Shown: positions 7,871-21,449, counted from the stretch's first letter. The stretch is DNA of 21,449 nt from Verrucomicrobiota bacterium (GCA_008932965.1 WBXG01000028.1:1-21449), one strand, 5' to 3'. The notes: generated from the sequence alone by a model not told the origin. A program made the numbers and translations.

Positions 7871-7888
7871 TAGCCCGCATAGTTCACA
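7871..7888 (+). repeat. Solo MITE terminal-repeat copy (TA+GCCCGCATAGTTCACA)
   Basis: Matches the left TIR consensus TA+GCCCGSATATTTCAYACT at 14 of 16 TIR positions. No partner TIR or element body is adjacent. It overlaps the last sense codon and stop codon (7884-7886) of the PP2C gene on the opposite strand. Confidence 0.6.
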
Positions 7889-8720
7889 AAAATTCAATCA
7901 CCATTGCTGTTGCATTGTCTCTTCCAGATCGCTCGACAGCCTCTTCGACGAGATGTTGTGCTAGTGGTTTTTTTGTAGACTCCGTTAAAATTTCCAATAG
8001 TTGAGCATCAAAAATTCCATCGGTCACGCCATCCGAGCAAAGCAAAAAGCGATCGCCCGGAGCGCAAGTCAGAGAGCCGACGTGTGGTGTGATAAATTGA
8101 TGATCAGCTCCAAGCACTTTTTGAAGCAGATTACGGCGAGGGTGATTTTTTGCCTCACGTTCATTGATCATTCCTTGGCGAAAGAGCCATCCGACATGGG
8201 TGTCATCCTCAGAAATTTGAGAGATCCCCCCTTTCTTTGGGAGATGATAAAAACGACTATCACCGATGTGTGCAAAATAAAGCCTTCCAGGACGCAACCA
8301 ACACATGGTCAAAGTTGTCCCCATACCACGGCATTCCTCATAGCTATTACTGAGAAAAAGAAGAGCTCGATGAATTTCGTGAAACAGCGCGATCAGGAGC
8401 TGATTGGCAGAATCATCTTCTGGAGCATGATCACGCTTTGGCATTTTATCTAATTGATTCAAGTAAGAAGGAAGCATTTTGGTTATTTTTTCAACTGCAA
8501 TCCGACTGGCAAATTCCCCTGCCATTGCTCCCCCCATCCCATCACTCACGGCAAAGACGTAGTCTTTAGAAGCATCGGAAGCTTCTCCGATTTTCCCCAA
8601 ATAACGCACCTCGTGCACATCAAGTGAGAGACCTAAAAAACTATCTTCATTATTTTTGCGTACATGTCCGATATCAGTGTGCCCCGACCAGCGCACGGTT
8701 ATTGATGATGAAGAGTTCAT
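7884..8720 (-). CDS. PP2C-family Ser/Thr protein phosphatase
   Basis: GHTDIGHVRKNNEDSF and VSDGMGGAMAGEFAS metal-binding motifs, and the C-terminal LLCSDGVTD...DNATAMVIEF block. Confidence 0.85.
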   Translation of the reverse strand: MNSSSSITVRWSGHTDIGHVRKNNEDSFLGLSLDVHEVRYLGKIGEASDASKDYVFAVSDGMGGAMAGEFASRIAVEKITKMLPSYLNQLDKMPKRDHAPEDDSANQLLIALFHEIHRALLFLSNSYEECRGMGTTLTMCWLRPGRLYFAHIGDSRFYHLPKKGGISQISEDDTHVGWLFRQGMINEREAKNHPRRNLLQKVLGADHQFITPHVGSLTCAPGDRFLLCSDGVTDGIFDAQLLEILTESTKKPLAQHLVEEAVERSGRDNATAMVIEFL

Positions 8721-8798
8721 ACGAATTTTAAAAAAGAGGGATTAAAATAGAGTTTTTTTCACAAAGGCGCTCTATTCAAGCACCTCTTTGTAGCAACT

Positions 8799-9200
8799 TC
8801 ACTTTTGAAAAACAGATTCATTTTTTTCGTTTAAAATAGTTGCAAATTCAAAATCGATGAGGCAAAAACGACCATCTTGGTGACGGTAGGTCACATTGCG
8901 CATATCCGGATCATCATGGTGGACTCCATATTCTTCAAGATCATCAAAGAGCTCTTTTTGCCTCTTTTTATCGAGATGTTCGATACGACTTCCGCAGCTT
9001 GTAGTCACGATCTTTAAATGCGATTCATCAACTTCCAAGAGTCGAGGAACAAAAAGACACGATTTTGACTCAAGATAGCGAAGCACCTTCACTTCATTGA
9101 GAAAGCGTTCATGAGCCTTCGGTCCATGGAATTGTTTGATCACACGCCCATCAAAGGTGACATGAACAGTAGATCGTAACGTCTCTTTGATGGTCTGCAT
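8799..9200 (-). CDS. Very short (133 aa) protein-kinase-like ORF
   Basis: Kinase-core landmarks appear in the right order: candidate beta3 Lys in RVIKQF, alphaC-like ERFLNEVKVLRYL, an HxDxxxxN-type catalytic loop HDDPDMRN, and a DFG-like LIDFEFA. There is no Gly-rich loop and nothing after the DFG-like motif. It is co-oriented with the PP2C gene, 78 nt upstream. Confidence 0.45.
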   Translation of the reverse strand: MQTIKETLRSTVHVTFDGRVIKQFHGPKAHERFLNEVKVLRYLESKSCLFVPRLLEVDESHLKIVTTSCGSRIEHLDKKRQKELFDDLEEYGVHHDDPDMRNVTYRHQDGRFCLIDFEFATILNEKNESVFQK

Positions 9201-9265: not shown

Positions 9266-9450
9266 TAGCAGGGATGTTTCATAGTGAAGGGGCATAAGGT
9301 GCCGTGCAAAGCTTATTAGGAGAAGGTGGCCGAAGGATTGTAAAACCTGGCTTTAGGAGTTCCTACCGCCCAAGTCAAAATAAGAGTCTCATGCAGTATT
9401 GAACTACTTTTACGGCTTCCGTAGGTGATCAGCATAAAATATCCCTGTTA
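9266..9450 (+). mobile_element. 185-bp MITE-like element (subfamily 2, copy A) in the glnII upstream region
   Basis: Left end TA+GCAGGGATGTTTCATAGTG. The right end reads TA+ACAGGGATATTTTATGCTG on the reverse complement. Its interior can be aligned with copy B at 13161-13345 (CAAAGCTYATTAG, TAGGAGTYCCWACCGYCCAAKTC, ATGCAGTA, CCGTA blocks). TA flanks both ends. Confidence 0.75.
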
Positions 9451-9541: not shown

Positions 9542-10558
9542 ATGACTCCCTACAAATTAGAATATATCTGGCTTGACGGTTATGAACCTGTTGCCAATCT
9601 TCGTAGCAAATTACAGGTCAAACAGTTTCCCTCGGAGCCTACACTCGAAGAGATTCCGATGTGGAGCTTTGATGGTAGCTCCACACGCCAAGCCGAAGGC
9701 AAAAGTTCTGATTGTATGTTAAAACCGGTGGCACTCTATCCTGATGTCACCATGGAAAATGCCTATTTAGTGATGTGCGAGGTCATGATGCCCGATGGAA
9801 CCCCACACCCATCGAATACACGTGCTACTATTTTAGATGCCCCCGATGCTTGGTTTGGTTTTGAACAAGAATATTTTCTTTACCAGGAGGGACGCCCCCT
9901 TGGTTTCCCAAAAGAGGGCTACCCTGGACCACAAGGTCCCTACTACTGTGGCGTTGGATATTCTAATATCGGCTCTATGGCACGCCAAATGGTCTACGAA
10001 CATCTTGAAATCTGCTTAGCAGCCGGTATTCATCATGAGGGAATTAATGCCGAAGTAGCCAAAGGACAATGGGAATTCCAGATTTTTGGTAAAGGTTCTA
10101 AAAAGGCTGCCGATGAGGTTTGGGTCGCCCGCTACCTTCTGCAACGTCTTGGAGAAAGCTATGGTATCGATGTAGAATACCATTGCAAACCTCTGGGCAA
10201 GGATCTTGATTGGAATGGTTCTGGAATGCATTGTAATTTCTCTACAAACCAGATGCGCGAGCAAGGTGGTAAAGAATATTTTGATAAGCTCATGATTGCT
10301 TTTGATAAATACAAAAATGAACACATTGCCGTATATGGTCCTGACAATCATTTGCGCCTCACTGGACTTCACGAGACACAGTCGATTGATAAATTTAACT
10401 ATGGTATTGCTAATCGTGGCGCTTCCATTCGAGTTCCTCACACATTCGTTAATAATGATTATAAAGGATACTTGGAAGATCGCCGACCTAACTCTCAAGG
10501 GGATCCCTACAAGATTGCTGGTCGCATCTTACAAACAATAGCTACAGTAAAGTCCTAA
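9542..10558 (+). CDS. glnII: Glutamine synthetase type II (GSII, eukaryote-like)
   Basis: KLEYIWLDG N-terminus, FGFEQEYFL, AKGQWEFQ, GSGMHCNFST and NRGASIRVP motifs, with the GSII-typical length of 338 aa. Confidence 0.9.
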   Translation: MTPYKLEYIWLDGYEPVANLRSKLQVKQFPSEPTLEEIPMWSFDGSSTRQAEGKSSDCMLKPVALYPDVTMENAYLVMCEVMMPDGTPHPSNTRATILDAPDAWFGFEQEYFLYQEGRPLGFPKEGYPGPQGPYYCGVGYSNIGSMARQMVYEHLEICLAAGIHHEGINAEVAKGQWEFQIFGKGSKKAADEVWVARYLLQRLGESYGIDVEYHCKPLGKDLDWNGSGMHCNFSTNQMREQGGKEYFDKLMIAFDKYKNEHIAVYGPDNHLRLTGLHETQSIDKFNYGIANRGASIRVPHTFVNNDYKGYLEDRRPNSQGDPYKIAGRILQTIATVKS

Positions 10559-10585
10559 TCTTGCTAATCCCCCAACCGTTGATAT

Positions 10586-13126
10586 TTATTCCTCAAATGG
10601 TATTGGCTTAGGTGATGGAAGATTCATGACAGGAAGTGCACTTGGAAGATCCATGGGACGAACGCGCTCTGCACGACGCACTTCAGGATTTACTGGAATG
10701 GCCTTCTCCACAGGAATTGGTTTTTTCGTAGATTTTGATTTTTCTAATCCTGGTGATCGAGCTATGGCGGCTGCAGGTTCAGAAATAGTAGATCTTTCGT
10801 CTATGGCAATGGCTTTTGCTACAGGAATGTTGGTGTTTTCTGGTTGCTGGGCAAGAGGAGGAAGGAGTGTCTGATAGGCATCTGCAGAAGCAAGAAGGGT
10901 AGGCCCTGTTACTGCAATTGGAGAAATAGGAGCAAGATCAACAGCTGAGACTGCACGTGGCCACTCCTCGAGTTCATAATCTTTTGTATAGTTGGGAGAA
11001 ATATTCCCATGAACATCACAGTCACGGGTTGGTATCTCAGCATCCGTGGCATACTCGGCAACCACTGTGTTAGCCTCGTAGCAGGCATCTGTTGCTCGTA
11101 AACCAGAGGAACGACAGATACTTTCCTGATGTAGCGATGATGGTCGAGTGATCGGCTTGGGAGGAAATGTCGTAAGTGAGGCATTCATGACTGCTGCCCA
11201 GACGGGTAATGCAAGGTCTTTTCCAAAGGCACCACGATAAATTTTTTGTGGTTTATCAAAACCAAGCCAGACACCACAAGTAACCTCACTGGAATAACCG
11301 ATGAACCACGCATCGGTAAAATCGTAGGCAGTTCCACTCTTACCCCCTGAGGGAAAGAGTGGAAGATTCTCTTTTTTGATTTCAGAAGCATCCGTGTGAT
11401 GCAGGGCATCATCTAAAATAGAGTGTGTTTGAAAAGCAACCTCGGGAGAAATAACATCGAGACGTTTGAGAGGGGTTTCAAAAAGCAAGGAACCATCGGC
11501 ATCAGTAATTTTTTTAATTGTATAAAGTTTTTCAGGACGACTCCCTTCTCCTGGAAAGAGAGAGAAAGCGAGTGTTAAGTCATCAAGTTCCATTTCACTG
11601 GATCCAAGATAGGCATTAGAAACCTCACGCACAGGCGCATGAATCCCTGCCTGGGCACAAAATTGCTTTAAAGCATCTGTTCCAGTTAAAAAACCTAAGC
11701 GCACAACAGCAGCATTTTTTCCTCGTGCCACTGCTTCATGAGAAGTCATTGGGCCTTCGTAGCCATTATCGACACACTCTACCCCCCATTCCCCCAAAAT
11801 ACCGGTTTCTCCCCCAATCATGACATAATGATTATCCATACAACTATCATCAACCACCTCCCCTGGAAAAATTCCTTTGTTATAAGCAGCGGCTGCAACC
11901 AGCGGTGTAAAAAGGGTTCCTGGTGGGCGCCGTCCTTGTAATGCACGATTATACTCGCTATGCATGAAGTCACGCCCCCCCACTAAGGCCAAAATTCCCC
12001 CAGTATGATTATCAATAGTGAGAACAGCTCCCTGCAAGTAACCAGGTGTTGGAAAGTTAACAAAGCCCCCTTTTGCCACGATTTCCTCTAGTCCACGATG
12101 GCGTGCGTGATAATCTGCATAAGTTTCATGATCATATCCTTTGGTGAGGTCAATGCGGTCGAGTTCTTGGTGCAATGCATTTTCTGCCACTTGTTGGAGA
12201 TGAAGATCCAAGGTGGTATCGATTCGAACCCCTCCATTCATGGCTCGCTGGTATCCTAAGGCTGCAATCGCTTGCTGTCGTACTAAGTCAATGGCATAGG
12301 AAACTTTAAAAGGATTACTTCTTTTTTGGACACCCAAAGGAAGCTGAAGTGCCTCTTGGCACTCTTTTTTATTCATAAAACCTAATTCATACATACGGTT
12401 TAAAACAAAATCACGTACTCCGAATGCTCCTTTGGGATTATTCCAGGGAGAGAGCGCATTAGGACTTTTTAGTAATCCTGCTAGGAGCGCACTTTCACTG
12501 ACGTTTAAGGAACCAGCATGCTTGCCAAAGTACCCCATTGCAGCTGCTTCAACCCCATAAAAACCGCTTCCAAAATAGACCCGATTTAAATAGAGCTCCA
12601 TAATTTTTTCTTTTGTCAAATGACGCTCAATACGATGGGCCAAAAACATTTCTAAAATCTTGCGTTGAATACTCCGCTCGCGAAGATCAAAAGAATTTCG
12701 TGCCAATTGTTGAGTCACAGTACTAGCCCCTTGCTTAATACGGCCTTGTCGGTAGTTGCTAATGGCAGCACGAAGAACTCCAAAATAATCGACTCCATGG
12801 TGCTCAAAAAATCGATTGTCCTCCTCAGCCACAATGGCATTCACCATAGTCTTAGGAATGTCTGAATAATGGATGGGCAATCGATTTTGAATAAATATTT
12901 TTCCAATCTCTACTCCATTACGATCATAGATAACACTCGCAGACTCCATCTTCTCAAGCTTAGAGAGATCAAAACCTTCCACCTGATTTGCAAATCTATA
13001 GTAAAGGTAAGCATAACCAACAAGACCACCTAGAGTTCCTAACATAAGAAAACTGACCAGGAGCATCAACCACCCACGTCGATACCATGGTCTCTTCTCA
13101 GATTTTTCCCAGCTGTAATAGTTCAT
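10586..13126 (-). CDS. Class A penicillin-binding protein (PBP1A-like). The GT51 glycosyltransferase is intact, the transpeptidase domain has degenerate catalytic motifs, and there is a Pro-rich C-terminal tail.
   Basis: GT51 motifs EDNRFFEHHGVD, GASTVTQQLARN, RKILEM and KEKIMELYLNRVYFG. The transpeptidase-homologous region has PGTLFTP, ARGKNAAV and KSGT. Confidence 0.85.
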   Translation of the reverse strand: MNYYSWEKSEKRPWYRRGWLMLLVSFLMLGTLGGLVGYAYLYYRFANQVEGFDLSKLEKMESASVIYDRNGVEIGKIFIQNRLPIHYSDIPKTMVNAIVAEEDNRFFEHHGVDYFGVLRAAISNYRQGRIKQGASTVTQQLARNSFDLRERSIQRKILEMFLAHRIERHLTKEKIMELYLNRVYFGSGFYGVEAAAMGYFGKHAGSLNVSESALLAGLLKSPNALSPWNNPKGAFGVRDFVLNRMYELGFMNKKECQEALQLPLGVQKRSNPFKVSYAIDLVRQQAIAALGYQRAMNGGVRIDTTLDLHLQQVAENALHQELDRIDLTKGYDHETYADYHARHRGLEEIVAKGGFVNFPTPGYLQGAVLTIDNHTGGILALVGGRDFMHSEYNRALQGRRPPGTLFTPLVAAAAYNKGIFPGEVVDDSCMDNHYVMIGGETGILGEWGVECVDNGYEGPMTSHEAVARGKNAAVVRLGFLTGTDALKQFCAQAGIHAPVREVSNAYLGSSEMELDDLTLAFSLFPGEGSRPEKLYTIKKITDADGSLLFETPLKRLDVISPEVAFQTHSILDDALHHTDASEIKKENLPLFPSGGKSGTAYDFTDAWFIGYSSEVTCGVWLGFDKPQKIYRGAFGKDLALPVWAAVMNASLTTFPPKPITRPSSLHQESICRSSGLRATDACYEANTVVAEYATDAEIPTRDCDVHGNISPNYTKDYELEEWPRAVSAVDLAPISPIAVTGPTLLASADAYQTLLPPLAQQPENTNIPVAKAIAIDERSTISEPAAAIARSPGLEKSKSTKKPIPVEKAIPVNPEVRRAERVRPMDLPSALPVMNLPSPKPIPFEE

Positions 13127-13160
13127 ATCAGTGATATTGCTTAGAGCAGTCGCAATGAAT

Positions 13161-13345
13161 TAACCTGCATATTTCATACTGAAGTGTCCTGAGGCGACGT
13201 TCAAAGCTCATTAGTACAAGACGTGCTAAGGAGTTGATACCGAGCTGTAGGAGTCCCAACCGTCCCAATCGCCATTTGAAATCAATGCAGTAGCCATAGA
13301 GCTTTCCAGAAGCCGTAATAGATGGAGTGTAAAATATTCAGGTTA
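13161..13345 (+). mobile_element. 185-bp MITE-like element (subfamily 2, copy B) between the PBP1A start and tRNA-Leu
   Basis: Left end TA+ACCTGCATATTTCATACTG. The right end reads TA+ACCTGAATATTTTACACTC on the reverse complement (16/19). TA flanks both ends. The right-hand interior (GAGCTTTCCAGAAGCCGTAATAGAT) is nearly identical to the element at 15867-16048. Confidence 0.8.
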
Positions 13346-13436
13346 AAACTCTCTGTGATTCAATGCGGTCTTTCTTCACACTTTAAAAAACTTTTGAAGA
13401 AATCCTCTCTTGACTCAAACTGGAAACACAACCATT

Positions 13437-13520
13437 TACCGGCGGAGGGGTTCGAACCCACACATCCTTGCGGATACCAGATTTTGAGTCTAGCGCGTCT
13501 GCCAGTTTCGCCACGCCGGC
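13437..13520 (-). tRNA. tRNA-Leu (anticodon CAA), type II with a long variable arm. CCA is not encoded.
   Basis: The reverse complement reads GCCGGCG TG GCGAAACTGGCAGACGC G CTAGA CTCAAAA TCTGG TATCCGCAAGGATGT GTGGG TTCGAAC CCCTC CGCCGGT A. This gives a cloverleaf with a CUCAAAA anticodon loop and a GTTCGAA T-loop. Confidence 0.85.
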
Positions 13521-13607
13521 TTGTTTGCGATACAGTCGCTAAGACTACTCGTTTAAAATCTATTTATTCAATCTAAATCCCGTCGTTAAAATGGATAAAT
13601 TCTCTCC

Positions 13608-13628
13608 TTTAGATGAAATATCCGGGCT
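13608..13628 (+). repeat. Solo right-end TIR fragment of the MITE family (TTTAGATGAAATATCCGGGCT)
   Basis: Matches the right end of the 15867-16048 element (TTTAGTGTGAAATATCCGGGCT) with one substitution and one 1-nt gap. There is no matching left end between it and the tRNA. Confidence 0.6.
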
Positions 13629-13705
13629 TGGGCAAAACTCATTCACATTAAAAAAAACTAGAGGTCATAAGTGCGTTTGTTACCATTGTGCGGTGATCTC
13701 TTTCT

Positions 13706-14036
13706 TAGCCCGAATATTTCAAACTCATCACCTGCAGAGACTGGGAAGCCAGATAAATTCTGCGTTAGCCCGCCTATTTCATACTTGTTCATCGCGAGGC
13801 GACGCGAATCCCGATGCAGAAACCACCGGCGGTCAGGAGACCATGGGGGAGACTGCCCTGGCTTTAAGGGGGCAGCCCGGAAAGGGCGAGACGAGCGGGA
13901 GCGAGCGAGTCAACGAAGGTGATGGATTGCAACGACGGCTGTATGTCTCATACTGCCCGAGGAGCAATTCGAGGCTGACGCAGTATCCATCAGTTGTTCG
14001 CAAGCTGCAGCAGAATCAGTATGAAATATTCGGGTT
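13706..14036 (+). mobile_element. Composite or nested MITE cluster upstream of amtB: a solo left TIR (13706-13727), then a 271-bp composite unit (13766-14036) made of module 1 (13766-13866) plus a D-type element with an eroded left TIR
   Basis: TA+GCCCGAATATTTCAAACT at 13706 and TA+GCCCGCCTATTTCATACT at 13766. Module 1 is about 88% identical by eye to 21240-21340. The right part aligns with 15867-16048 (CGAAGG.TGATGG, CTGT.TGT..CATACTGCCCGAGGA, ACGCAGTA) and ends with the right TIR CAGTATGAAATATTCGGGT (14017-14035). Confidence 0.8.
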
Positions 14037-14052
14037 GCCTCACCGTTTTAAA

Positions 14053-15489
14053 ATGTCACTCTTGTTTCTGATTTTTTTTATCAGTAGCGCTATAGGAGCT
14101 CCAGTCAGGGAAACAGGCTCTCAACCTTTTTCTGTAGAACAGCGTCTCTCCTATTTGGAAGCGATGCTTCATAATGAAGATCCCTCATTAACAGGAATGG
14201 TTTCAGTAGCCGCTCCGTGGCATACTGCTTGGATGATGGTTGCTGCACTTTTAGTTCTTTTCATGGTGCTTCCTGGACTTGCTCTTTTTTATGGTGGGCT
14301 TGTTCGTCAAAAAAATGTCCTTTCTATTTTAGCAACCTGCCTAGGCATTGCCGGTCTGGTCATTATTCTTTGGTGGGCTTTTGGCTACAGTTTGGTCTTT
14401 GGTCATAATTTTCATTCACCTTTCTTAGGAGGTTCTGAATATTTTTTCCTTCAAGGAGTTAACTCATTACCCAATACCAATTATGCTTATTGGATCCCTC
14501 AAAATATTTTTTGCATCTATGAACTTGCCTTTGCGATCATTACTCCAGCTCTTATTTTTGGAGCAAGTGCAGAGCGAATGAAATTTTCAGCAGTCCTTTT
14601 TTATTCCTTTCTCTGGATGTTCTGCATCTATTTTCCCTTAGCCCATATGGTTTGGGGGAGCAATGGACTCCTTAATGGACTCCTCAATCCAGAGGCCTGG
14701 ATTCCTGCACTTGATTTTGCAGGGGGCACAGTTGTTCATATGTCTTCAGGGTGGTCCGCCTTGGTGCTTTGTATCATTCTTGGAAAACGTTTGGGACATG
14801 GAAAGGAACCGATGATGCCTCATAGTCTTGTTTTAACAGTCGTGGGAACCGGTATCCTTTGGATTGGATGGTATGGATTCAATGCAGGAAGCGCTCTCGG
14901 AGTCGATAGCATTGCGATGAATGCCTTCATGACAACAACTCTGGCAGCAGGAGCAGGCTGCCTAACGTGGCCTACAATAGAATTTTTATTCCGTGGAAAA
15001 CTCAGCGTTTTGGGATTTTGCTCTGGAGCGGTTGCGGGACTCGTAGCAGTGACTCCAGCATGCGGTTTTATCAATAGCGCTGGAGCAATTTGGAGCGGCT
15101 TTATTGCTGCAATCGTAACGTACTTTGCCTGCACAACATTCAAGAAAATATTTCATTACGATGATGCCCTCGATAGCTTTGGAATTCATGGAGTTGGGGG
15201 AACCATAGGGGCTCTCTTAACCGGAGTTTTTGCGACATCAACGGTGAATGCACATCTGATTTCCCCAATTACTATTAATAATGGACTGGAGCATGCTTTA
15301 AAAAATCAAACCATTTGGTTGATACAAGCAAAAGCACTTGGTATGTCTCTTCTCTACGTCGTTATTGTCAGCCTCGTAATTGCAGCTATCGTTAATGGAA
15401 TCATCGGTCTGCGTGCCAGTCAGGAGGCTGAAGCACAAGGACTCGATATCAGCGATCATGGTGAAGAAGGATATACCTTGAATGGTTAG
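14053..15489 (+). CDS. amtB: Ammonium transporter (Amt family) with an N-terminal signal peptide
   Basis: Start re-set to the ATG at 14053 (MSLLFLIFFISSAIGAP signal-like sequence). The 154 codons upstream in the listed ORF are translations of the MITE cluster. Amt signatures are DFAGGTVVHMSSGWSAL, WYGFNAGSA and FGIHGVGGTIGALLTG. Confidence 0.9.
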   Translation: MSLLFLIFFISSAIGAPVRETGSQPFSVEQRLSYLEAMLHNEDPSLTGMVSVAAPWHTAWMMVAALLVLFMVLPGLALFYGGLVRQKNVLSILATCLGIAGLVIILWWAFGYSLVFGHNFHSPFLGGSEYFFLQGVNSLPNTNYAYWIPQNIFCIYELAFAIITPALIFGASAERMKFSAVLFYSFLWMFCIYFPLAHMVWGSNGLLNGLLNPEAWIPALDFAGGTVVHMSSGWSALVLCIILGKRLGHGKEPMMPHSLVLTVVGTGILWIGWYGFNAGSALGVDSIAMNAFMTTTLAAGAGCLTWPTIEFLFRGKLSVLGFCSGAVAGLVAVTPACGFINSAGAIWSGFIAAIVTYFACTTFKKIFHYDDALDSFGIHGVGGTIGALLTGVFATSTVNAHLISPITINNGLEHALKNQTIWLIQAKALGMSLLYVVIVSLVIAAIVNGIIGLRASQEAEAQGLDISDHGEEGYTLNG

Positions 15490-15515
15490 CTTGAATCCGA
15501 CTCCCAGATCGATAA

Positions 15516-15866
<351 letters not shown>

Positions 15867-15869
<3 letters not shown>

Positions 15870-16048
15870 CCCGGATATTTCATACTGATCGTGATGAGGA
15901 GGCCGCGAAGGCTGATGGGGCAAGGCGAGCGATGAAGTCTGACGACTGCTGTGTGTATACACACTGCCCGAGGAAGACTTCGAGATCAACGCAGTAATGA
16001 TGAGCTTTCCACAAGCCGTAATAGATTTAGTGTGAAATATCCGGGCTA
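15867..16048 (+). mobile_element. 182-bp MITE-like element (D-type, best-preserved copy) between the convergent glnK and nitroreductase genes
   Basis: TIRs TA+GCCCGGATATTTCATACT (15867-15886) and AGTGTGAAATATCCGGGC+TA (16029-16048) match at 17/18, with TA on both flanks. A central perfect 14-bp palindrome GTGTGTATACACAC (15951-15964) is nested inside GAAGTCT/AGACTTC (15934-15940 / 15975-15981). Confidence 0.85.
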
Positions 16049-16084
16049 GCTCAGCTACTGGGGAGATCGATACAACCGAAAAGG

Positions 16085-16809: not shown

Positions 16810-19800
16810 ATGATGCTACAACAGATTCTGGAAAAAGGATTGCGATTTCTTTCTCGGACTCAATATTCCTTGAATCGAGGTTGGAGACGCTTGCAAAGGA
16901 AGCCTCGCACAGTGACTGAAGCTCCTAATCTTTTACCAACACTCATTAAAGTACTAGCTGCCTTTACTCGCGTTGATGGAGAGATGCTTGAAGAAGAGAT
17001 CGATTCCATCCTTGGGTTTTTGCGTTATGACTATCCCGAAATTGTTTACTCCGAGCTGCGCCAACTTTTTCGTCAAGCACTCGAAGAACAGCAAGACCTC
17101 TCTGAAATCGCCACCAAGCTTTCTAATAATCTAGATAATAATCGCAAAATTCTTCTTGGTGTTCAGCTCTACGATCTCATCTTTCGATCTGGAATGAAGG
17201 AGGATCAGGTGGCTGCTTATTATGATTTTATGGCCAAGCTGGGAATGGCAGATCAGGCCATTGATATTGTTTATCAGCTCAATGCCAATGAAGAGATAGA
17301 TCCCGCTCCCAATTTTCATCATTCCTCTCAACTTGAAAAGCTCAGTTTTGGCCATCCCAGCTATCATGATGTTGGGCTTCGAGATCTTCCTGAAAAAGAA
17401 TTTCTCTTAGCCTACCGTTTTCACGATTTTATTATTCTCAAAAACAAAACAGAACGGGCCATCATCGTTCAAGGAAGGCTTCTCAAGCCACTGGAATTTT
17501 GTCGTATCTATCCTGGACAGCGCATTCTCATTGGTGAACAGGTGATCACAAGCCAGGATCTTATCTTTTATTTTAATGCGAAAAAAAATGTCTCCCTGCC
17601 ACATCTCTTCGTTGCTATTGGCAAAAAAGAGGTTCGACTCGATAAAGTGCGAAATCGAGACAGCAGCCTTGAGGTCGCTTTTGGCCTTAAAGTAGACGTT
17701 ACTGCACTACAAAATCTCCAAGCAACCTTGGATGGTATTACACTTAAAAAAGGGATTCACCTTCAAGCTCAGCTTGATGATCGCATTCTCTTCACCAATG
17801 GAGGAGAGCTCAATTTAAACGATCTTAAGAGACATGTACGCTCATTTGGAGGACGTTTCCCACTCAAAGCATCGAAGTCGGAGTACCTTGTTTCCAATAA
17901 TCCAGGGCTTTTAGAAGAAAATGACATTCTCCTCTCTCATGGAAGTGGGGGGGAAGTTCTTCTTAAAATTTCCTGCAACTATCCGGAAAAGACAGGATAT
18001 ATTCAAGTTCTTCAAGCTGATCGCCCGATCATTGTGCATGAACTTCCTGTTAGAAATGGGGCACCTCTTCTCGATGGCGACACCATTGGAATTAATCCTG
18101 GCCAAGTCCTACGTTGCAACTTCACCGATCGAATTATTGAAGAAGAGCGTAATATTATTCATCGCCTGGAAGTCAAGGATGTCCTTTGCCGATTTCCTAA
18201 TGGTCATGTCGCTTTAGATAATTTGAATTTCTCGGTCGAACGTGGAGAAATGATTTGCGTTATGGGAGCTAGCGGTTCGGGCAAAAGCACCCTGTTACGA
18301 GCACTAGCAGGGGATTTTCGACCCGTCCAAGGAGAGGTGCGTTTTAATGATTACTCCCTCTACGCCCAATATGAAACATTGCGCCAATACATCACCTACA
18401 TTCCCCAATATGAGGCTTTTGATGAACAACTCACCATTGAAGAAAACCTCTCCTTTGCAGCAGCCTTACGTGCTCCCCACTTATCAAGAAAAGAGCGAGC
18501 CCGCCGCATTGATAGCAAATTAGCAGAGTTGGGACTCAATGAACGTCGTAAGAATGTCGTAGGAGATACCCATCAAAAAATCTTAAGTGGAGGGGAGCGA
18601 AAACGTCTCAACATCGGACTTGATATGATTAGCACTGCTGATGTCTACCTTTTTGATGAACCAACCTCCGGACTCTCCTCCAAAGACTCGGAGCACGTTA
18701 TTGAAATCATTCGGGGCATTGCTCATAACAAAATTGTTTTAGTCACCATTCACCAACCGACTTCGAAACTCTTTCAAATGTTTCAAAAAGCACTGCTCCT
18801 GGATCGTGGTGGTAAGTTAGTTTTTTTTGGAACTCCCTCCGAAATGCTTGCCTACTTTGCCGAAGCAGAGCATGAACAGCTTTTTGGAACAGAACTTGGA
18901 GGGTGCAAAGCATGCGGCTCCACACGACCTGAATTTGTCTTTGATGTTCTAGAGACACCATTGCGGGATCTAAGTGGCGATCTCATTTATCAGGAAAACA
19001 ATCGAGGACAGTTGGTCCCAGCACGTCGCTTTTCACCTGATTATTGGAGAGATAAATTTGAGACACATCGATTGATGAAAGAGGTGCAACATTCCTTAGG
19101 ATCTGCAAAACCCCTCTCCACAACCTTAGATGCTCATCCTGCACCCATCCTGATGCCTCAATGGGAGCCGCAACGGTGGCGTGACGAAGTAGCACAACTC
19201 TTTATTTTACTTCAACGATCTTTTATTAGCAAATTACGCAACCGAGCTAATCTTCTCACCACCTTAGTAGAGGCTCCTCTCTTGGCTTTTCTCATTGGAG
19301 TCGTTCTCCGATATTCGGAGAGCAGCAGCTATGATTTTGCATCGGCATTTCATATCCCAACCTACTTTTTCCTTTCACTCGTTGTTGCTATGTTCTTAGG
19401 ACTGACCAATAGTGTGGATGATATTATTCATGACCGACCTGTCCTCTTGCGCGAGCGAAATCTTAATGTACGACTCGGTTATTATGTACTAGCAAAGGGG
19501 ATCACCTTGGGGGTCTTTGCCATTGCGCAGTGCGCCTTATTTGCACTCATTGGTAATAAGATGCTCGGCATTCGTGGTTTTTTTAAAATAGAGTTTGTTG
19601 CATTGTTCTTAACAGCCTTGAGTGGCATTTCACTAGGTCTTCTCATTTCCTCGCTTGCCTCTGAGGGAAAAACCGCAGTAAACATCATTCCCATTGTTCT
19701 CATTCCCCAGATTATTCTTGGGGGTGCTTTGATTAAATATGAGGAAATGAATCGTAATCTCGATTTTATTTATTCTATTCAACAGTGGTTCAATCATCAT

Positions 19801-20391
19801 CCCGACTCAGCAATGGAGCCACGCAGTGACTTGCAGGTTCCTTTCATCTGTGAATTCATGCCGATGCGTTGGTCCTATGAAGCTTTAATTTATGCACAAG
19901 CAAAACTCAATCCCCTAGCAATCCGTCAATCGAGAATTCAAAATCAAATAAATCGAATTTCAGCGATGAGCAATCCAACGGAGAGGGAGTTAGATCGCCT
20001 TGAAGATCTCAAGGAACTCCTTGCTATCCTCAGTGGATTGAGTGGAAAAACAGCAGCAGAAGTCGATTATCGTCTCTCTCTCATTGATAAAGTGATTCAA
20101 GGAGCCCCATTCAATCGCAAAAAACTCGTGAGTCGTCATACAGGTATCAATGTGGAGCAGCTCTATACCAACCAAAAAATGGTCGACCTTGTTTCCAAAG
20201 CTGAAATGGAACAAGCAGATTACCGAGAAAGTCGTCATCCCAATGTTTTCTTTGGACCTATTAAATATTATCTTGGATTAACAATAGATATTCTCACATT
20301 CAATATCGGCGTGCTCCTCATCTCCACCTTCTCTGCTTTTTTAGCACTTTACTTCATTTTGAAACGTCAAATAAAAATGGGAAAGCATTAG
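16810..20391 (+). CDS. Multidomain ABCG/ABC-2-type half-transporter: N-terminal TerB-like helical domain, three FHA-like modules, an ABC ATPase, and an ABC-2 membrane domain with a greatly expanded loop before the last TM
   Basis: TerB-like LIKVLAAFTRVDGEMLEEEIDSILGFL. FHA-like C-terminal strands (RIYPGQRILIGEQVI; VRNGAPLLDGDTIGINPGQVLRCNF). Walker A GASGSGKST, signature LSGGERKRL, Walker B VYLFDEPTSGLS and H-loop VTIHQP. ABC-2 TM block from about residue 800, then about 270 aa containing coiled-coil-like sequence before the final TM FNIGVLLISTFSAFLALYFIL. Confidence 0.8.
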   Translation: MMLQQILEKGLRFLSRTQYSLNRGWRRLQRKPRTVTEAPNLLPTLIKVLAAFTRVDGEMLEEEIDSILGFLRYDYPEIVYSELRQLFRQALEEQQDLSEIATKLSNNLDNNRKILLGVQLYDLIFRSGMKEDQVAAYYDFMAKLGMADQAIDIVYQLNANEEIDPAPNFHHSSQLEKLSFGHPSYHDVGLRDLPEKEFLLAYRFHDFIILKNKTERAIIVQGRLLKPLEFCRIYPGQRILIGEQVITSQDLIFYFNAKKNVSLPHLFVAIGKKEVRLDKVRNRDSSLEVAFGLKVDVTALQNLQATLDGITLKKGIHLQAQLDDRILFTNGGELNLNDLKRHVRSFGGRFPLKASKSEYLVSNNPGLLEENDILLSHGSGGEVLLKISCNYPEKTGYIQVLQADRPIIVHELPVRNGAPLLDGDTIGINPGQVLRCNFTDRIIEEERNIIHRLEVKDVLCRFPNGHVALDNLNFSVERGEMICVMGASGSGKSTLLRALAGDFRPVQGEVRFNDYSLYAQYETLRQYITYIPQYEAFDEQLTIEENLSFAAALRAPHLSRKERARRIDSKLAELGLNERRKNVVGDTHQKILSGGERKRLNIGLDMISTADVYLFDEPTSGLSSKDSEHVIEIIRGIAHNKIVLVTIHQPTSKLFQMFQKALLLDRGGKLVFFGTPSEMLAYFAEAEHEQLFGTELGGCKACGSTRPEFVFDVLETPLRDLSGDLIYQENNRGQLVPARRFSPDYWRDKFETHRLMKEVQHSLGSAKPLSTTLDAHPAPILMPQWEPQRWRDEVAQLFILLQRSFISKLRNRANLLTTLVEAPLLAFLIGVVLRYSESSSYDFASAFHIPTYFFLSLVVAMFLGLTNSVDDIIHDRPVLLRERNLNVRLGYYVLAKGITLGVFAIAQCALFALIGNKMLGIRGFFKIEFVALFLTALSGISLGLLISSLASEGKTAVNIIPIVLIPQIILGGALIKYEEMNRNLDFIYSIQQWFNHHPDSAMEPRSDLQVPFICEFMPMRWSYEALIYAQAKLNPLAIRQSRIQNQINRISAMSNPTERELDRLEDLKELLAILSGLSGKTAAEVDYRLSLIDKVIQGAPFNRKKLVSRHTGINVEQLYTNQKMVDLVSKAEMEQADYRESRHPNVFFGPIKYYLGLTIDILTFNIGVLLISTFSAFLALYFILKRQIKMGKH

Positions 20392-20421: not shown

Positions 20422-21237
20422 ATGATATCCTTCGAAGACAACTGGCTTGATATTATCCTCAAAGCAATACGAGGATTGAATTTGGATCCCATTACCTTGT
20501 CCCAGAGGAGTGGAATCCCCCAAGCAAAAATCACCTCCCTCTTAGCAGGGCTGCGTAATGATGCAACACTCGTTGCCATTGCTCCAACCTTGGGACTTCA
20601 TCCCCGCGAACTTGTCATGGTTGCAGCTGAGACCTCTCATCTTCTGGTTCCCACCTTACCAATCCATGTTCACTGCTTCACAACCCTCTACCATGGCATG
20701 GAGGTTCACTCGTATCTCCTCTGGAGTCAGATGAATCACCATGCTGTTGCCTTTGATACAGGAGCCGATCTAACCCCCCTCCTAGAAAAACTGGATCAGA
20801 ATCATCTCTCTTTAGAAGCGATTTTTTTAACTCACTCCCATGCAGATCATATCTTTAAACTCGCTGAGCTTCAAAAAAAACTAAAGATTCCTGCTTGGAT
20901 CGATCCTGCAGAGCTTATTGAGGGGACACAACCCCTCACCACCGATTTTTCCTATCAGCTTGATTCAAGAGTCTCGATAAAGGCACTCTCTACTCCTGGA
21001 CATTCTCCAGGAGGTACAACCTACCTCATTGGGGGACTCTCCCGACCGATAGCTATCGTGGGAGATGCCATTTTTGCTCGTTCTGTGGGAGGAATGCCCA
21101 CTGCCTCTTATGCCGCTGGCCTCAAAAGTATTTGCAATAAGATTCTCATGCTTTCCCCTGCAACCCTCCTAGCCCCAGGCCATGGCCCTCTCACAACCGT
21201 CGAAGAAGAACGTATGAAGAATCCTTTCTTTGCATAG
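20422..21237 (+). CDS. Metallo-beta-lactamase-fold hydrolase (glyoxalase II-like) with an N-terminal HTH-like extension of about 70 aa
   Basis: MBL motifs THSHADH, TPGHSPGG, VGDAIF and PGHGP. The N-terminal segment LSQRSGIPQAKITSLLAG resembles an XRE-type helix-turn-helix. Confidence 0.75.
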   Translation: MISFEDNWLDIILKAIRGLNLDPITLSQRSGIPQAKITSLLAGLRNDATLVAIAPTLGLHPRELVMVAAETSHLLVPTLPIHVHCFTTLYHGMEVHSYLLWSQMNHHAVAFDTGADLTPLLEKLDQNHLSLEAIFLTHSHADHIFKLAELQKKLKIPAWIDPAELIEGTQPLTTDFSYQLDSRVSIKALSTPGHSPGGTTYLIGGLSRPIAIVGDAIFARSVGGMPTASYAAGLKSICNKILMLSPATLLAPGHGPLTTVEEERMKNPFFA

Positions 21238-21239
21238 TC

Positions 21240-21449
21240 TAGCCCGCATATTTCATACTGGTTCGTCGCGAGGCGCCGCGAATCCTGATGCAGACACCAC
21301 CGGCGGTCGGAAGACCGCGGGGGAGACTGCCCTGGCTTTAACCCGGATATTTCATACTGATCGTGACGAGGAGGCCGCGAAGGCTGATGGGGTAAGGCAG
21401 GCGAGTATTTTGATGCAGGGCTGTATGTGTACATACTGCCCAAATCAAA
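21240..21449 (+). mobile_element. Second copy of the composite MITE unit (module 1 at 21240-21340, followed by a D-type element from 21339), truncated by the window end
   Basis: TA+GCCCGCATATTTCATACT at 21240. Module 1 aligns along its whole length with 13766-13866. TA+ACCCGGATATTTCATACTGATCGTGACGAGGAGGCCGCGAAGGCTGATGGGG at 21339- differs at about 3 positions from the first 55 nt or so of the 15867 element. Confidence 0.8.

Follow-up and report, generated by a model that had tools for sequence, protein, structure and literature searches.

Here we describe a gene of the 21,449-nucleotide contig WBXG01000028.1 from a Verrucomicrobiota bacterium (assembly GCA_008932965.1), which was analyzed over its full length and is referred to as the window. 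The gene occupies positions 16810-20391 on the plus strand as a single open reading frame (ORF) of 1193 codons, as evident from the ORF listing and its translation, and it is conserved in, and characteristic of, the phylum Verrucomicrobiota rather than being a rarity of one genome. Its product is supported by sequence comparison as an ATP-binding cassette (ABC) half-transporter of the ABCG type, in which a nucleotide-binding domain (NBD) precedes a transmembrane domain (TMD). Ahead of this core, we found a head of approximately 450 residues, comprising a probably TerB-like helical domain and three contiguous β-rich modules with similarity to forkhead-associated (FHA) domains, from which the canonical phosphothreonine-contacting residues have largely been lost. 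The protein represents a variant of the FHA-headed ABC exporters that is spread throughout Verrucomicrobiota, and its regulation is probably independent of phosphorylation. An earlier note, made by a model from the sequence alone, had described the same gene as an extended form of the Rv1747 architecture. The gene and its parts are listed below in window coordinates, with residue numbers and the basis of each assignment; the model-based entries derive from AlphaFold2 (AF2) and its confidence score, the predicted local distance difference test (pLDDT), and TM denotes a transmembrane helix.

16810..20391, plus strand: whole gene (1193 amino acids, aa), encoding a half-transporter with a TerB-like domain, three FHA-like modules, an NBD and an ABC-2 TMD; homologues conserved end to end.
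16810..16926, plus strand: variable basic N-terminal helix, residues 1-39; pLDDT 46-54.
16927..17289, plus strand: seven-helix domain, probably TerB-like, residues 40-160; AF2 helices at 42-158 and a sub-threshold TerB match.
17335..17595, plus strand: module A, a non-canonical FHA-fold β-sandwich of eight strands and a C-terminal helix, residues 176-262; AF2, Foldseek and hhalign.
17596..17850, plus strand: module B, with the same strand and helix pattern as module A and probably FHA-like, residues 263-347; AF2 and the span of the 5fwh match.
17851..18159, plus strand: module C, FHA fold with ten strands, residues 348-450; AF2 (pLDDT about 90) and hhalign.
18160..18879, plus strand: ABC ATPase domain (NBD), residues 451-690; Pfam ABC_tran, motifs and matches to ABCG/PDR NBDs in the PDB.
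18880..19194, plus strand: ABCG-type extension following the NBD (RPEFVFDVLE) and variable linker to the TMD, residues 691-795; conservation.
19195..19764, plus strand: TM1-TM5 of the ABC-2 membrane domain, residues 796-985; Pfam ABC2_membrane and hydropathy.
19765..20259, plus strand: predicted extracytoplasmic TM5-TM6 segment, residues 986-1150; segment lengths and distribution of lysine and arginine.
20260..20391, plus strand: last TM helix (approximately 1157-1182), basic cytoplasmic tail and stop, residues 1151-1193; hydropathy peak at 1175.

The homologues of the protein revealed that the gene is intact. When 5.8 billion proteins were searched, full-length homologues of 1150-1236 aa with identities of 65-95% numbered more than 117, and all of those with a named source belonged to Verrucomicrobiota lineages (Chthoniobacterales, Terrimicrobiaceae or Verrucomicrobiae). 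The earlier note had named a sequencing frameshift near nucleotide 18150, which would have joined two genes, as a result that would overturn its reading; in that case, the ORF would be an assembly or sequencing artefact in which a cytoplasmic protein and an ABC transporter have been joined. We found that 117 full-length homologues, which derive from many independent assemblies, aligned without a break through residues 440-460, and that the identity on either side of the suspected junction was 0.83 (residues 421-450) and 0.63 (residues 451-480). Moreover, distant full-length members with identities of 28-35% showed the same order of parts at almost the same length (approximately 1190 residues). 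Because conservation is unbroken across the suspected junction and the layout is shared by these distant members, a frameshift fusion was excluded, the probability that we assign to an artefact is negligible, and the long single ORF was borne out.

The distant members bearing names came from Akkermansiaceae and from Akkermansia metagenome-assembled genomes (MAGs). Two proteins of this origin, P0331 and P0371, were the most distant full-length members of the family, which therefore extends to Akkermansia, a genus known as a gut inhabitant. Only 295 of 1.84 billion cluster representatives matched the N-terminal profile at E ≤ 1e-3 in an exhaustive HMMER search, and many of these were fragments. 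When one genome per GTDB species was searched, the matching stretches that could be confirmed numbered at least 543, and all 80 of the 80 loci kept were from Verrucomicrobiota. The public annotation of family members reads only "ATP-binding cassette domain-containing protein"; since this label covers only the ABC domain, approximately 40% of a protein conserved throughout the phylum stands without annotation.

We then consider the transporter core, which had been assigned to the ABCG/White type. The ATPase motifs were present in order: Walker A (GASGSGKS) at residue 486, the signature LSGGERKRL at 592, Walker B (VYLFDEP) at 612 and the IHQP H-loop at 647. Pfam ABC_tran (PF00005) matched residues 469-620 with an E-value of 5e-30 and 105.3 bits (cut-off 25), and ABC2_membrane (PF01061) matched residues 796-990 with an E-value of 9e-25 and 87.9 bits (cut-off 26.9); ABC2_membrane_7 additionally matched residues 648-685. 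The order of the motifs and the profile scores above their cut-offs thus identify an ABC transporter ATPase. Hydropathy peaks at 824, 856, 906, 938 and 966 placed five TM helices between residues 814 and 980. When residues 450-1193 were compared with all PDB chains, the top matches were Cdr1/Pdr5, ABCG25, ABCG16, ABCG5/8, ABCG1 and ABCG2, followed by ABCA. An NBD ahead of a six-TM ABC-2 domain, with ABCG/PDR proteins as the nearest relatives, corresponds to an ABCG/ABC-2 (type V) half-transporter. The best NCBIfam match was the White/eye-pigment family TIGR00955 (E 3.5e-71), whose score of 240.6 bits is far under the 736-bit cut-off of that subfamily. From the PDB and NCBIfam scores, the ABCG kind is therefore right and membership of the eukaryotic subfamily is wrong; with this restriction, the original assignment agreed with the motifs, Pfam, NCBIfam and PDB matches alike. 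The region following the NBD was highly conserved at residues 691-750 (identity 0.88-0.90), with a decrease to 0.35 at residues 751-780, and its RPEFVFDVLE stretch resembles the NPADF motif of ABCG proteins.

To see the fold of the residues that precede the ATPase, an AlphaFold2 model of residues 1-460 was used, which was built from a 98-sequence alignment and had a mean pLDDT of 80.4. The model contained a helical domain (residues 42-158), which a short disordered linker (162-172) separated from the β modules A (176-262), B (263-347) and C (348-450). A short conserved RCxFS-G-L-(D/E)EER segment joined module C to the first strand of the NBD. The Foldseek comparison with the PDB revealed almost only FHA domains; the tandem FHA structure of EssC (5fwh) was found to be the top match, with an E-value of 6.8e-4 over 210 columns, and further matches included CT664, Ki-67, EmbR, KIF1A, YscD, PNKP and others. 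A second AlphaFold2 model, which covered residues 40-347 (pLDDT 84.6), was made to see whether the FHA signal came only from module C. Upon comparison of this model, the top 50 matches were again all FHA-containing entries, with deviations of 2.2-3.0 Å over 70-78 columns and a probability of 1.00; they included Rad53 FHA1, EmbR, PNKP, EssC 5fwh (167 columns), S. aureus EssC-N (1wv3), DgcB, kanadaptin and KIF13. Since the top 50 matches remained FHA domains without module C, at least one of modules A and B has the FHA fold. Two adjacent modules were probably matched, because an alignment of the 188-residue 5fwh tandem over 167-210 columns can hardly skip a module of 85 residues.

Profile comparisons with hhalign pointed in the same direction. 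The FHA profile used was small (five diverse seeds and six hits, the seed search being dominated by GarA orthologues), and its seeds were confirmed as GarA and Ki-67, which carry PF00498. Module C aligned in register with this profile over 77 columns (P 1.2e-4), as did module A over 74 columns (P 4.9e-4). The modules also resembled one another: module A matched module C over 57 columns (P 5.4e-5), and module B matched module C over 62 columns (P 0.0038) and module A over 47 columns (P 0.0086), while control comparisons with the helical domain gave P values of 0.29-0.5. Modules A and C are thus supported as FHA-like by predicted fold and by profile, the fold of module C by inference, and module B is probably FHA-like on indirect evidence. 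The sequence libraries gave a different picture. Pfam and NCBIfam assigned nothing to the N-terminal 450 residues except the sub-threshold TerB match, and the FHA family PF00498 was found neither in the query (E ≤ 1) nor, at E ≤ 0.05, in the list of 25 families obtained for 19 diverse members; among 14 close homologues, it appeared in one at an E-value of 0.2, below the Pfam gathering score. A comparison of the N-terminal alignment with PDB sequences gave only chance-level matches (CsgH and TrmJ).

Using the in-register alignments, we compared the binding loops of the modules with those of canonical FHA domains. In FHA domains, Arg and Ser bind phosphothreonine directly and are both essential, according to a study of Rv1747 (PMC3138270). 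The canonical binding set, which consists of Gly-Arg in the β3-4 loop, Ser and His in the β4-5 loop and Asn in the β6-7 loop, was not found in these alignments. In module C, S362-N363 stood in place of the Gly-Arg pair and R405-P406 in place of the canonical Asn, and the canonical His position was not conserved. In module A, only the Gly (G181) was kept, and the positions of the canonical Arg, Ser, His and Asn were variable. The caution that the modules might be degenerate was thus justified, whereas the histidine of the ILLSH stretch of module C, which had been taken as a partly recognizable canonical site, did not hold up: this residue, H377, is not conserved and is Pro in most homologues. 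The conservation of module C lies elsewhere. N363, P365, G396, G423, C436 and E445 were invariant throughout the family, V361 and S362 were nearly so, and N363 and P365 were unchanged even across members with identities of 19-42%. The resulting VSN(N/D)P loop, which occupies the position of the FHA Gly-Arg loop, showed the strongest conservation in the whole family.

The helical domain ahead of the β modules had been proposed to be a TerB/DjlA-like module. Pfam TerB (PF05099) matched residues 46-114 of the query with 17.1-18.8 bits against a cut-off of 24.4, and sub-threshold TerB matches were present in 14 of 14 close homologues (best E 7e-5) and in 6 of the 19 diverse members. The profile of the helical domain aligned with a TerB sequence, which had been validated beforehand in Pfam at 81.8 bits, over 110 co-linear columns (hhalign P 0.0063) and with DjlA at P 0.026, compared with 0.18-0.38 for the β-module controls. 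In particular, the motif LAAFTRVDGEMLEEEIDSILGFL of the helical domain aligned with ARIAVASDGVSSEEKQKMIGFL of TerB. Like the TerB/DjlA N-terminal domain, the helical domain is all-helical with approximately 120 residues, and it has the ...A.F...DG....EE......L..L motif followed by a second, degenerate repeat; unlike TerB, it lacks the second DG motif, and it scored under the Pfam gathering score in all members tested. The seven-helix module itself was confirmed in the AlphaFold2 model, and its TerB identity, which stays at 17-19 bits, is probable and not established. Additionally, the flexible N-terminal helix (pLDDT about 50) carried a conserved basic motif, RRLxRKPR(T/S)V, at residues 26-35 (window 16885-16914), in which R26, R27 and P32 were nearly invariant in close homologues and the acceptor position alternated between Thr and Ser. 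This motif could be a membrane-binding or a phospho-acceptor site.

In ABCG structures, a re-entrant region with an extracytoplasmic loop precedes the last TM helix, and the TM5-TM6 segment of ABCG2 has roughly 70 residues. The corresponding segment of the window protein was found to total 178 residues. It began with a conserved re-entrant-like part (residues 986-1035), which includes MRWSYEAL at 1019-1026, and continued with a hydrophilic insert (residues 1036-1150) of approximately 115 aa. Across 135 homologues, the insert was 115 aa long at the median and at most 135 aa; its conservation was moderate and peaked towards the C-terminal end (NQK..DLVSKAEMEQADYR), and Pfam gave no match in the TM5-TM6 segment. 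Lysine and arginine numbered 6 before TM1, 0 in the TM1-2 loop, 5 in the TM2-3 loop and 4 in the C-terminal tail, which had no Asp or Glu. These counts fit a topology with both termini inside, which would place the 178-residue segment outside the cytoplasm, and the large loop is accordingly only predicted to be periplasmic. A giant loop of about 270 residues, partly coiled-coil, had been described before the last TM helix. The loop does exist and its periplasmic placement agreed with the charge distribution; its length, counted from MRWSYEAL to the last TM helix, is approximately 130 residues, and the coiled coil was not confirmed, since a crude heptad score as high was reached by 9.6% of shuffles (p about 0.1, not significant).

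We also compared the surroundings of the gene in related loci, and no kinase or phosphatase was linked to it in 84 of them. Within the window, a PP2C phosphatase gene (278 aa) adjoins a 133-aa kinase-like ORF with a weak APH match (E 5e-5) at 7884-9200 on the minus strand, approximately 8 kb from the ABC gene. Homologues of this PP2C were found in 1 of the 84 related loci and homologues of the mini-kinase in none, and one related locus had a Pkinase gene 2.5 kb downstream. On the upstream side, a nitroreductase gene is divergent from the ABC gene. On the downstream side, the following gene begins 30 nucleotides after it:

20422..21237, plus strand: gene of metallo-β-lactamase (MBL) fold, GloB-like; Pfam Lactamase_B and a weak NCBIfam GloB-like match.

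The MBL-fold protein has an unannotated N-terminal extension of approximately 90 residues. Its gene was recurrent in the first three contexts and was considered as a functional partner; this candidate was dropped when only about 19-22 of 68-81 related loci, a quarter to a third, proved to have the gene in the next downstream position. The pairing is thus lineage-limited. No other flanking family exceeded 15 of 81 loci, and a universal operon partner was thus not found among these loci; the genomic context is therefore uninformative on the substrate. PADLOC gave only generic P-loop/NBD matches for the ABC protein (residues 465-679) and none for its MBL neighbour, and a reading as an anti-phage defence system was rejected because these matches concern the generic ATPase only. 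In a scan for promoters and terminators, sites were no more frequent than expected by chance.

Taken with these results, the explanation that we slightly favor over all others together is a homodimeric, half-size ABCG/ABC-2 (type V) exporter, with the NBD followed by the six-TM domain, which would move a lipophilic or envelope-associated substrate outward. Its cytoplasmic head would consist of the TerB-like domain and three degenerate FHA-fold modules, the last of which would be fused to the first ATPase strand. This head would act as a phosphorylation-independent scaffold for interaction or self-association, as in the degenerate tandem FHA domains of EssC, and it would allow either a partner protein or a signal perceived by the TerB-like domain to gate the ATPase cycle; the likely contact surface would be the VSN(N/D)P loop. 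On the other side of the membrane, a periplasmic domain of approximately 115 residues would lengthen the exit side of the dimer and could pass a lipophilic or envelope-bound substrate onward in the diderm envelope. A phosphorylation-independent head is favored because the Arg, His and Asn are replaced and conservation has moved to the VSN(N/D)P loop, and also because there is no inter-module linker, no kinase linkage and a precedent in EssC-N.

Several observations weigh against this reading, and most of them would suit one of two rivals. The β modules might be structural spacers or an oligomerization platform with no regulatory ligand, their FHA likeness being an ancestral remnant or that of a generic β-sandwich and the TerB match being spurious. 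Here it counts that module B, although claimed along with A and C as FHA-like, had no independent profile support (hhalign against the FHA profile, P 0.15 over 51 columns, not significant), and that the Foldseek E-values were marginal, at about 1e-2 for single FHA domains; since residue ranges were also unreported, the assignment of the FHA fold to each module is partly indirect. TerB structures were absent from the Foldseek top 50, in addition to the sub-threshold Pfam score, and the sequence libraries and the PDB profile search yielded no FHA domain. For EssC-N itself, no partner was findable, and the only role assigned was that it contributes to protein stability (PMC4925161). Nevertheless, the matches of two independent models were uniformly FHA domains and not a mixture of β-sandwiches, the alignments with the FHA profile were in register over 74-77 columns, and the conservation of VSN(N/D)P at the Gly-Arg loop argues for a conserved binding surface. 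We therefore regard a purely structural head as improbable. The remaining adverse points concern phosphorylation. S376, which is Ser or Thr in most members, falls on the canonical Ser in the hhalign register and off it in the register of the model strands, so that from the alignment some phosphate recognition may be possible, and a kinase can act in trans even when its gene is unlinked.

These last points would fit a switch of the Rv1747 kind, in which the modules bind phosphothreonine placed on the transporter or a partner by a Ser/Thr kinase and phosphorylation turns export on. The layout agrees at the level of fold, with FHA modules N-terminal to an NBD-TMD half-transporter, and FHA-1 and FHA-2 of Rv1747 bind pThr150 and pThr208, with phosphorylation activating the transporter (PMC3138270). 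A PP2C and a small kinase-like ORF do lie within the window, the Pkinase gene of one related locus was noted above, and the conserved RKPR(T/S)V motif in the flexible N-terminus would offer a candidate acceptor. That acceptor, however, is frequently Ser, which canonical FHA domains are not known to bind. The phosphate-contacting Arg has become an invariant Asn in module C and is variable in module A, with His and Asn lost as well, and Pfam FHA scored in none of the 19 diverse members. Low pLDDT was confined to residues 1-38 and 162-172, and a long disordered linker with phospho-acceptors between the FHA modules was thus not found in the model; nor was kinase linkage, as the phosphatase and the mini-kinase recurred in 1 and 0 of the 84 loci. 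The phospho-regulated reading of the earlier note is weakened by these results, and we consider such a switch unlikely. A bolder proposal, to which we likewise give a low probability, is that the three modules with VSN(N/D)P and the TerB-like domain form a so far undescribed, Verrucomicrobiota-specific sensor head. Its ligand would be something other than a phosphopeptide, such as a metabolite, an envelope-stress protein or, through the TerB-like domain, a metal. The head would directly gate an ABCG-type exporter of lipids or glycolipids, and the enlarged periplasmic domain of this exporter would dock to an outer-membrane delivery route; if true, ABC-2 exporters would be governed here by a regulatory logic that is new and present in Akkermansia.

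Elsewhere in the window, we observed a dispersed intergenic repeat of approximately 100-190 nucleotides, which resembles a miniature inverted-repeat transposable element (MITE) or a repetitive extragenic palindrome (REP). Copies were present at 9266-9304, 13161-13345, 13766-14042, 15867-16053 and 21240-21449; they were 64-92% identical, and their ends are inverted (TAGCCCGGATATTTCATACTG ... CAGTATGAAATATTCGGGTTG). The repeat yields spurious ORFs at 15588-15989 and 21108-21443, both on the minus strand, which share one 19-residue peptide. A tRNA-Leu(CAA) gene (13437-13520, minus strand; Rfam 48.6 bits and ARAGORN) was located between two copies of the repeat. A nitrogen-assimilation cluster at 9542-15869 encoded an ammonium transporter, a P-II protein and a short protein of 338 aa that resembles glutamine synthetase, with a putative class A penicillin-binding-protein-like gene (846 aa), assigned by reading the sequence, on the opposite strand inside it. 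The ammonium-transporter ORF (13591-15489) probably includes approximately 200 surplus codons at the 5' end, because its Pfam domain begins only with residue 213 and this extension overlaps the repeat copies at 13766-14042.

FHA-headed ABC exporters such as Rv1747 are already known, as are degenerate FHA domains on transport ATPases (EssC and YscD). Our literature search gave no description of a TerB-like domain with three contiguous non-canonical FHA modules, an ABCG core and an enlarged periplasmic loop across Verrucomicrobiota. To place this layout, we compared it with three known systems. Rv1747 contains two canonical FHA domains, in which Ser47 and Ser248 are needed for phosphothreonine binding; the linker between them carries pThr150 and pThr208, and the gene lies in an operon with pknF (PMC3138270). 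Like Rv1747, the window protein has N-terminal FHA-fold modules, presumably cytoplasmic, before an ABC-2-type NBD-TMD half-transporter and is presumed to be a dimeric exporter. In contrast to the published description of Rv1747, its three modules are contiguous and lack the canonical Arg, His and Asn, it has neither an inter-module phospho-linker nor a linked kinase, and it adds a TerB-like domain and an enlarged TM5-TM6 loop. The description as an extended Rv1747-like architecture agrees with the extra helical head, the third module and the enlarged loop, and its phospho-regulated part is weakened; the Rv1747 phospho-switch model should not be transferred on architecture alone.

The ABC core resembles that of eukaryotic ABCG/PDR transporters (White, ABCG2, ABCG5/8, ABCG25 and Pdr5/Cdr1), which share the NBD-before-TMD order and the ABC2_membrane domain and gave the best NBD matches; unlike these, the window protein is bacterial, carries the 450-residue head and scores 240 rather than 736 bits against TIGR00955. 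The head is closest to EssC-N (5fwh and 1wv3) of the type VIIb secretion ATPase, the best structural match of the N-terminal model, where a membrane-anchored transport ATPase likewise bears consecutive FHA-fold modules at its cytoplasmic N-terminus. EssC-N also consists of tandem FHA domains that lack the phosphothreonine-recognition motifs, and its authors found no binding partner (PMC4925161). EssC differs in being an FtsK/SpoIIIE-type ATPase with two modules and no TerB-like domain, and sequence similarity between the two proteins was not detectable. The map of a TerB-like domain and a triple degenerate FHA array provides a testable layout for an exporter of soil Chthoniobacterales and of Akkermansiaceae, including Akkermansia MAGs, and it adds an ABC-transporter case to the degenerate FHA domains found on the membrane transport machines EssC and YscD.

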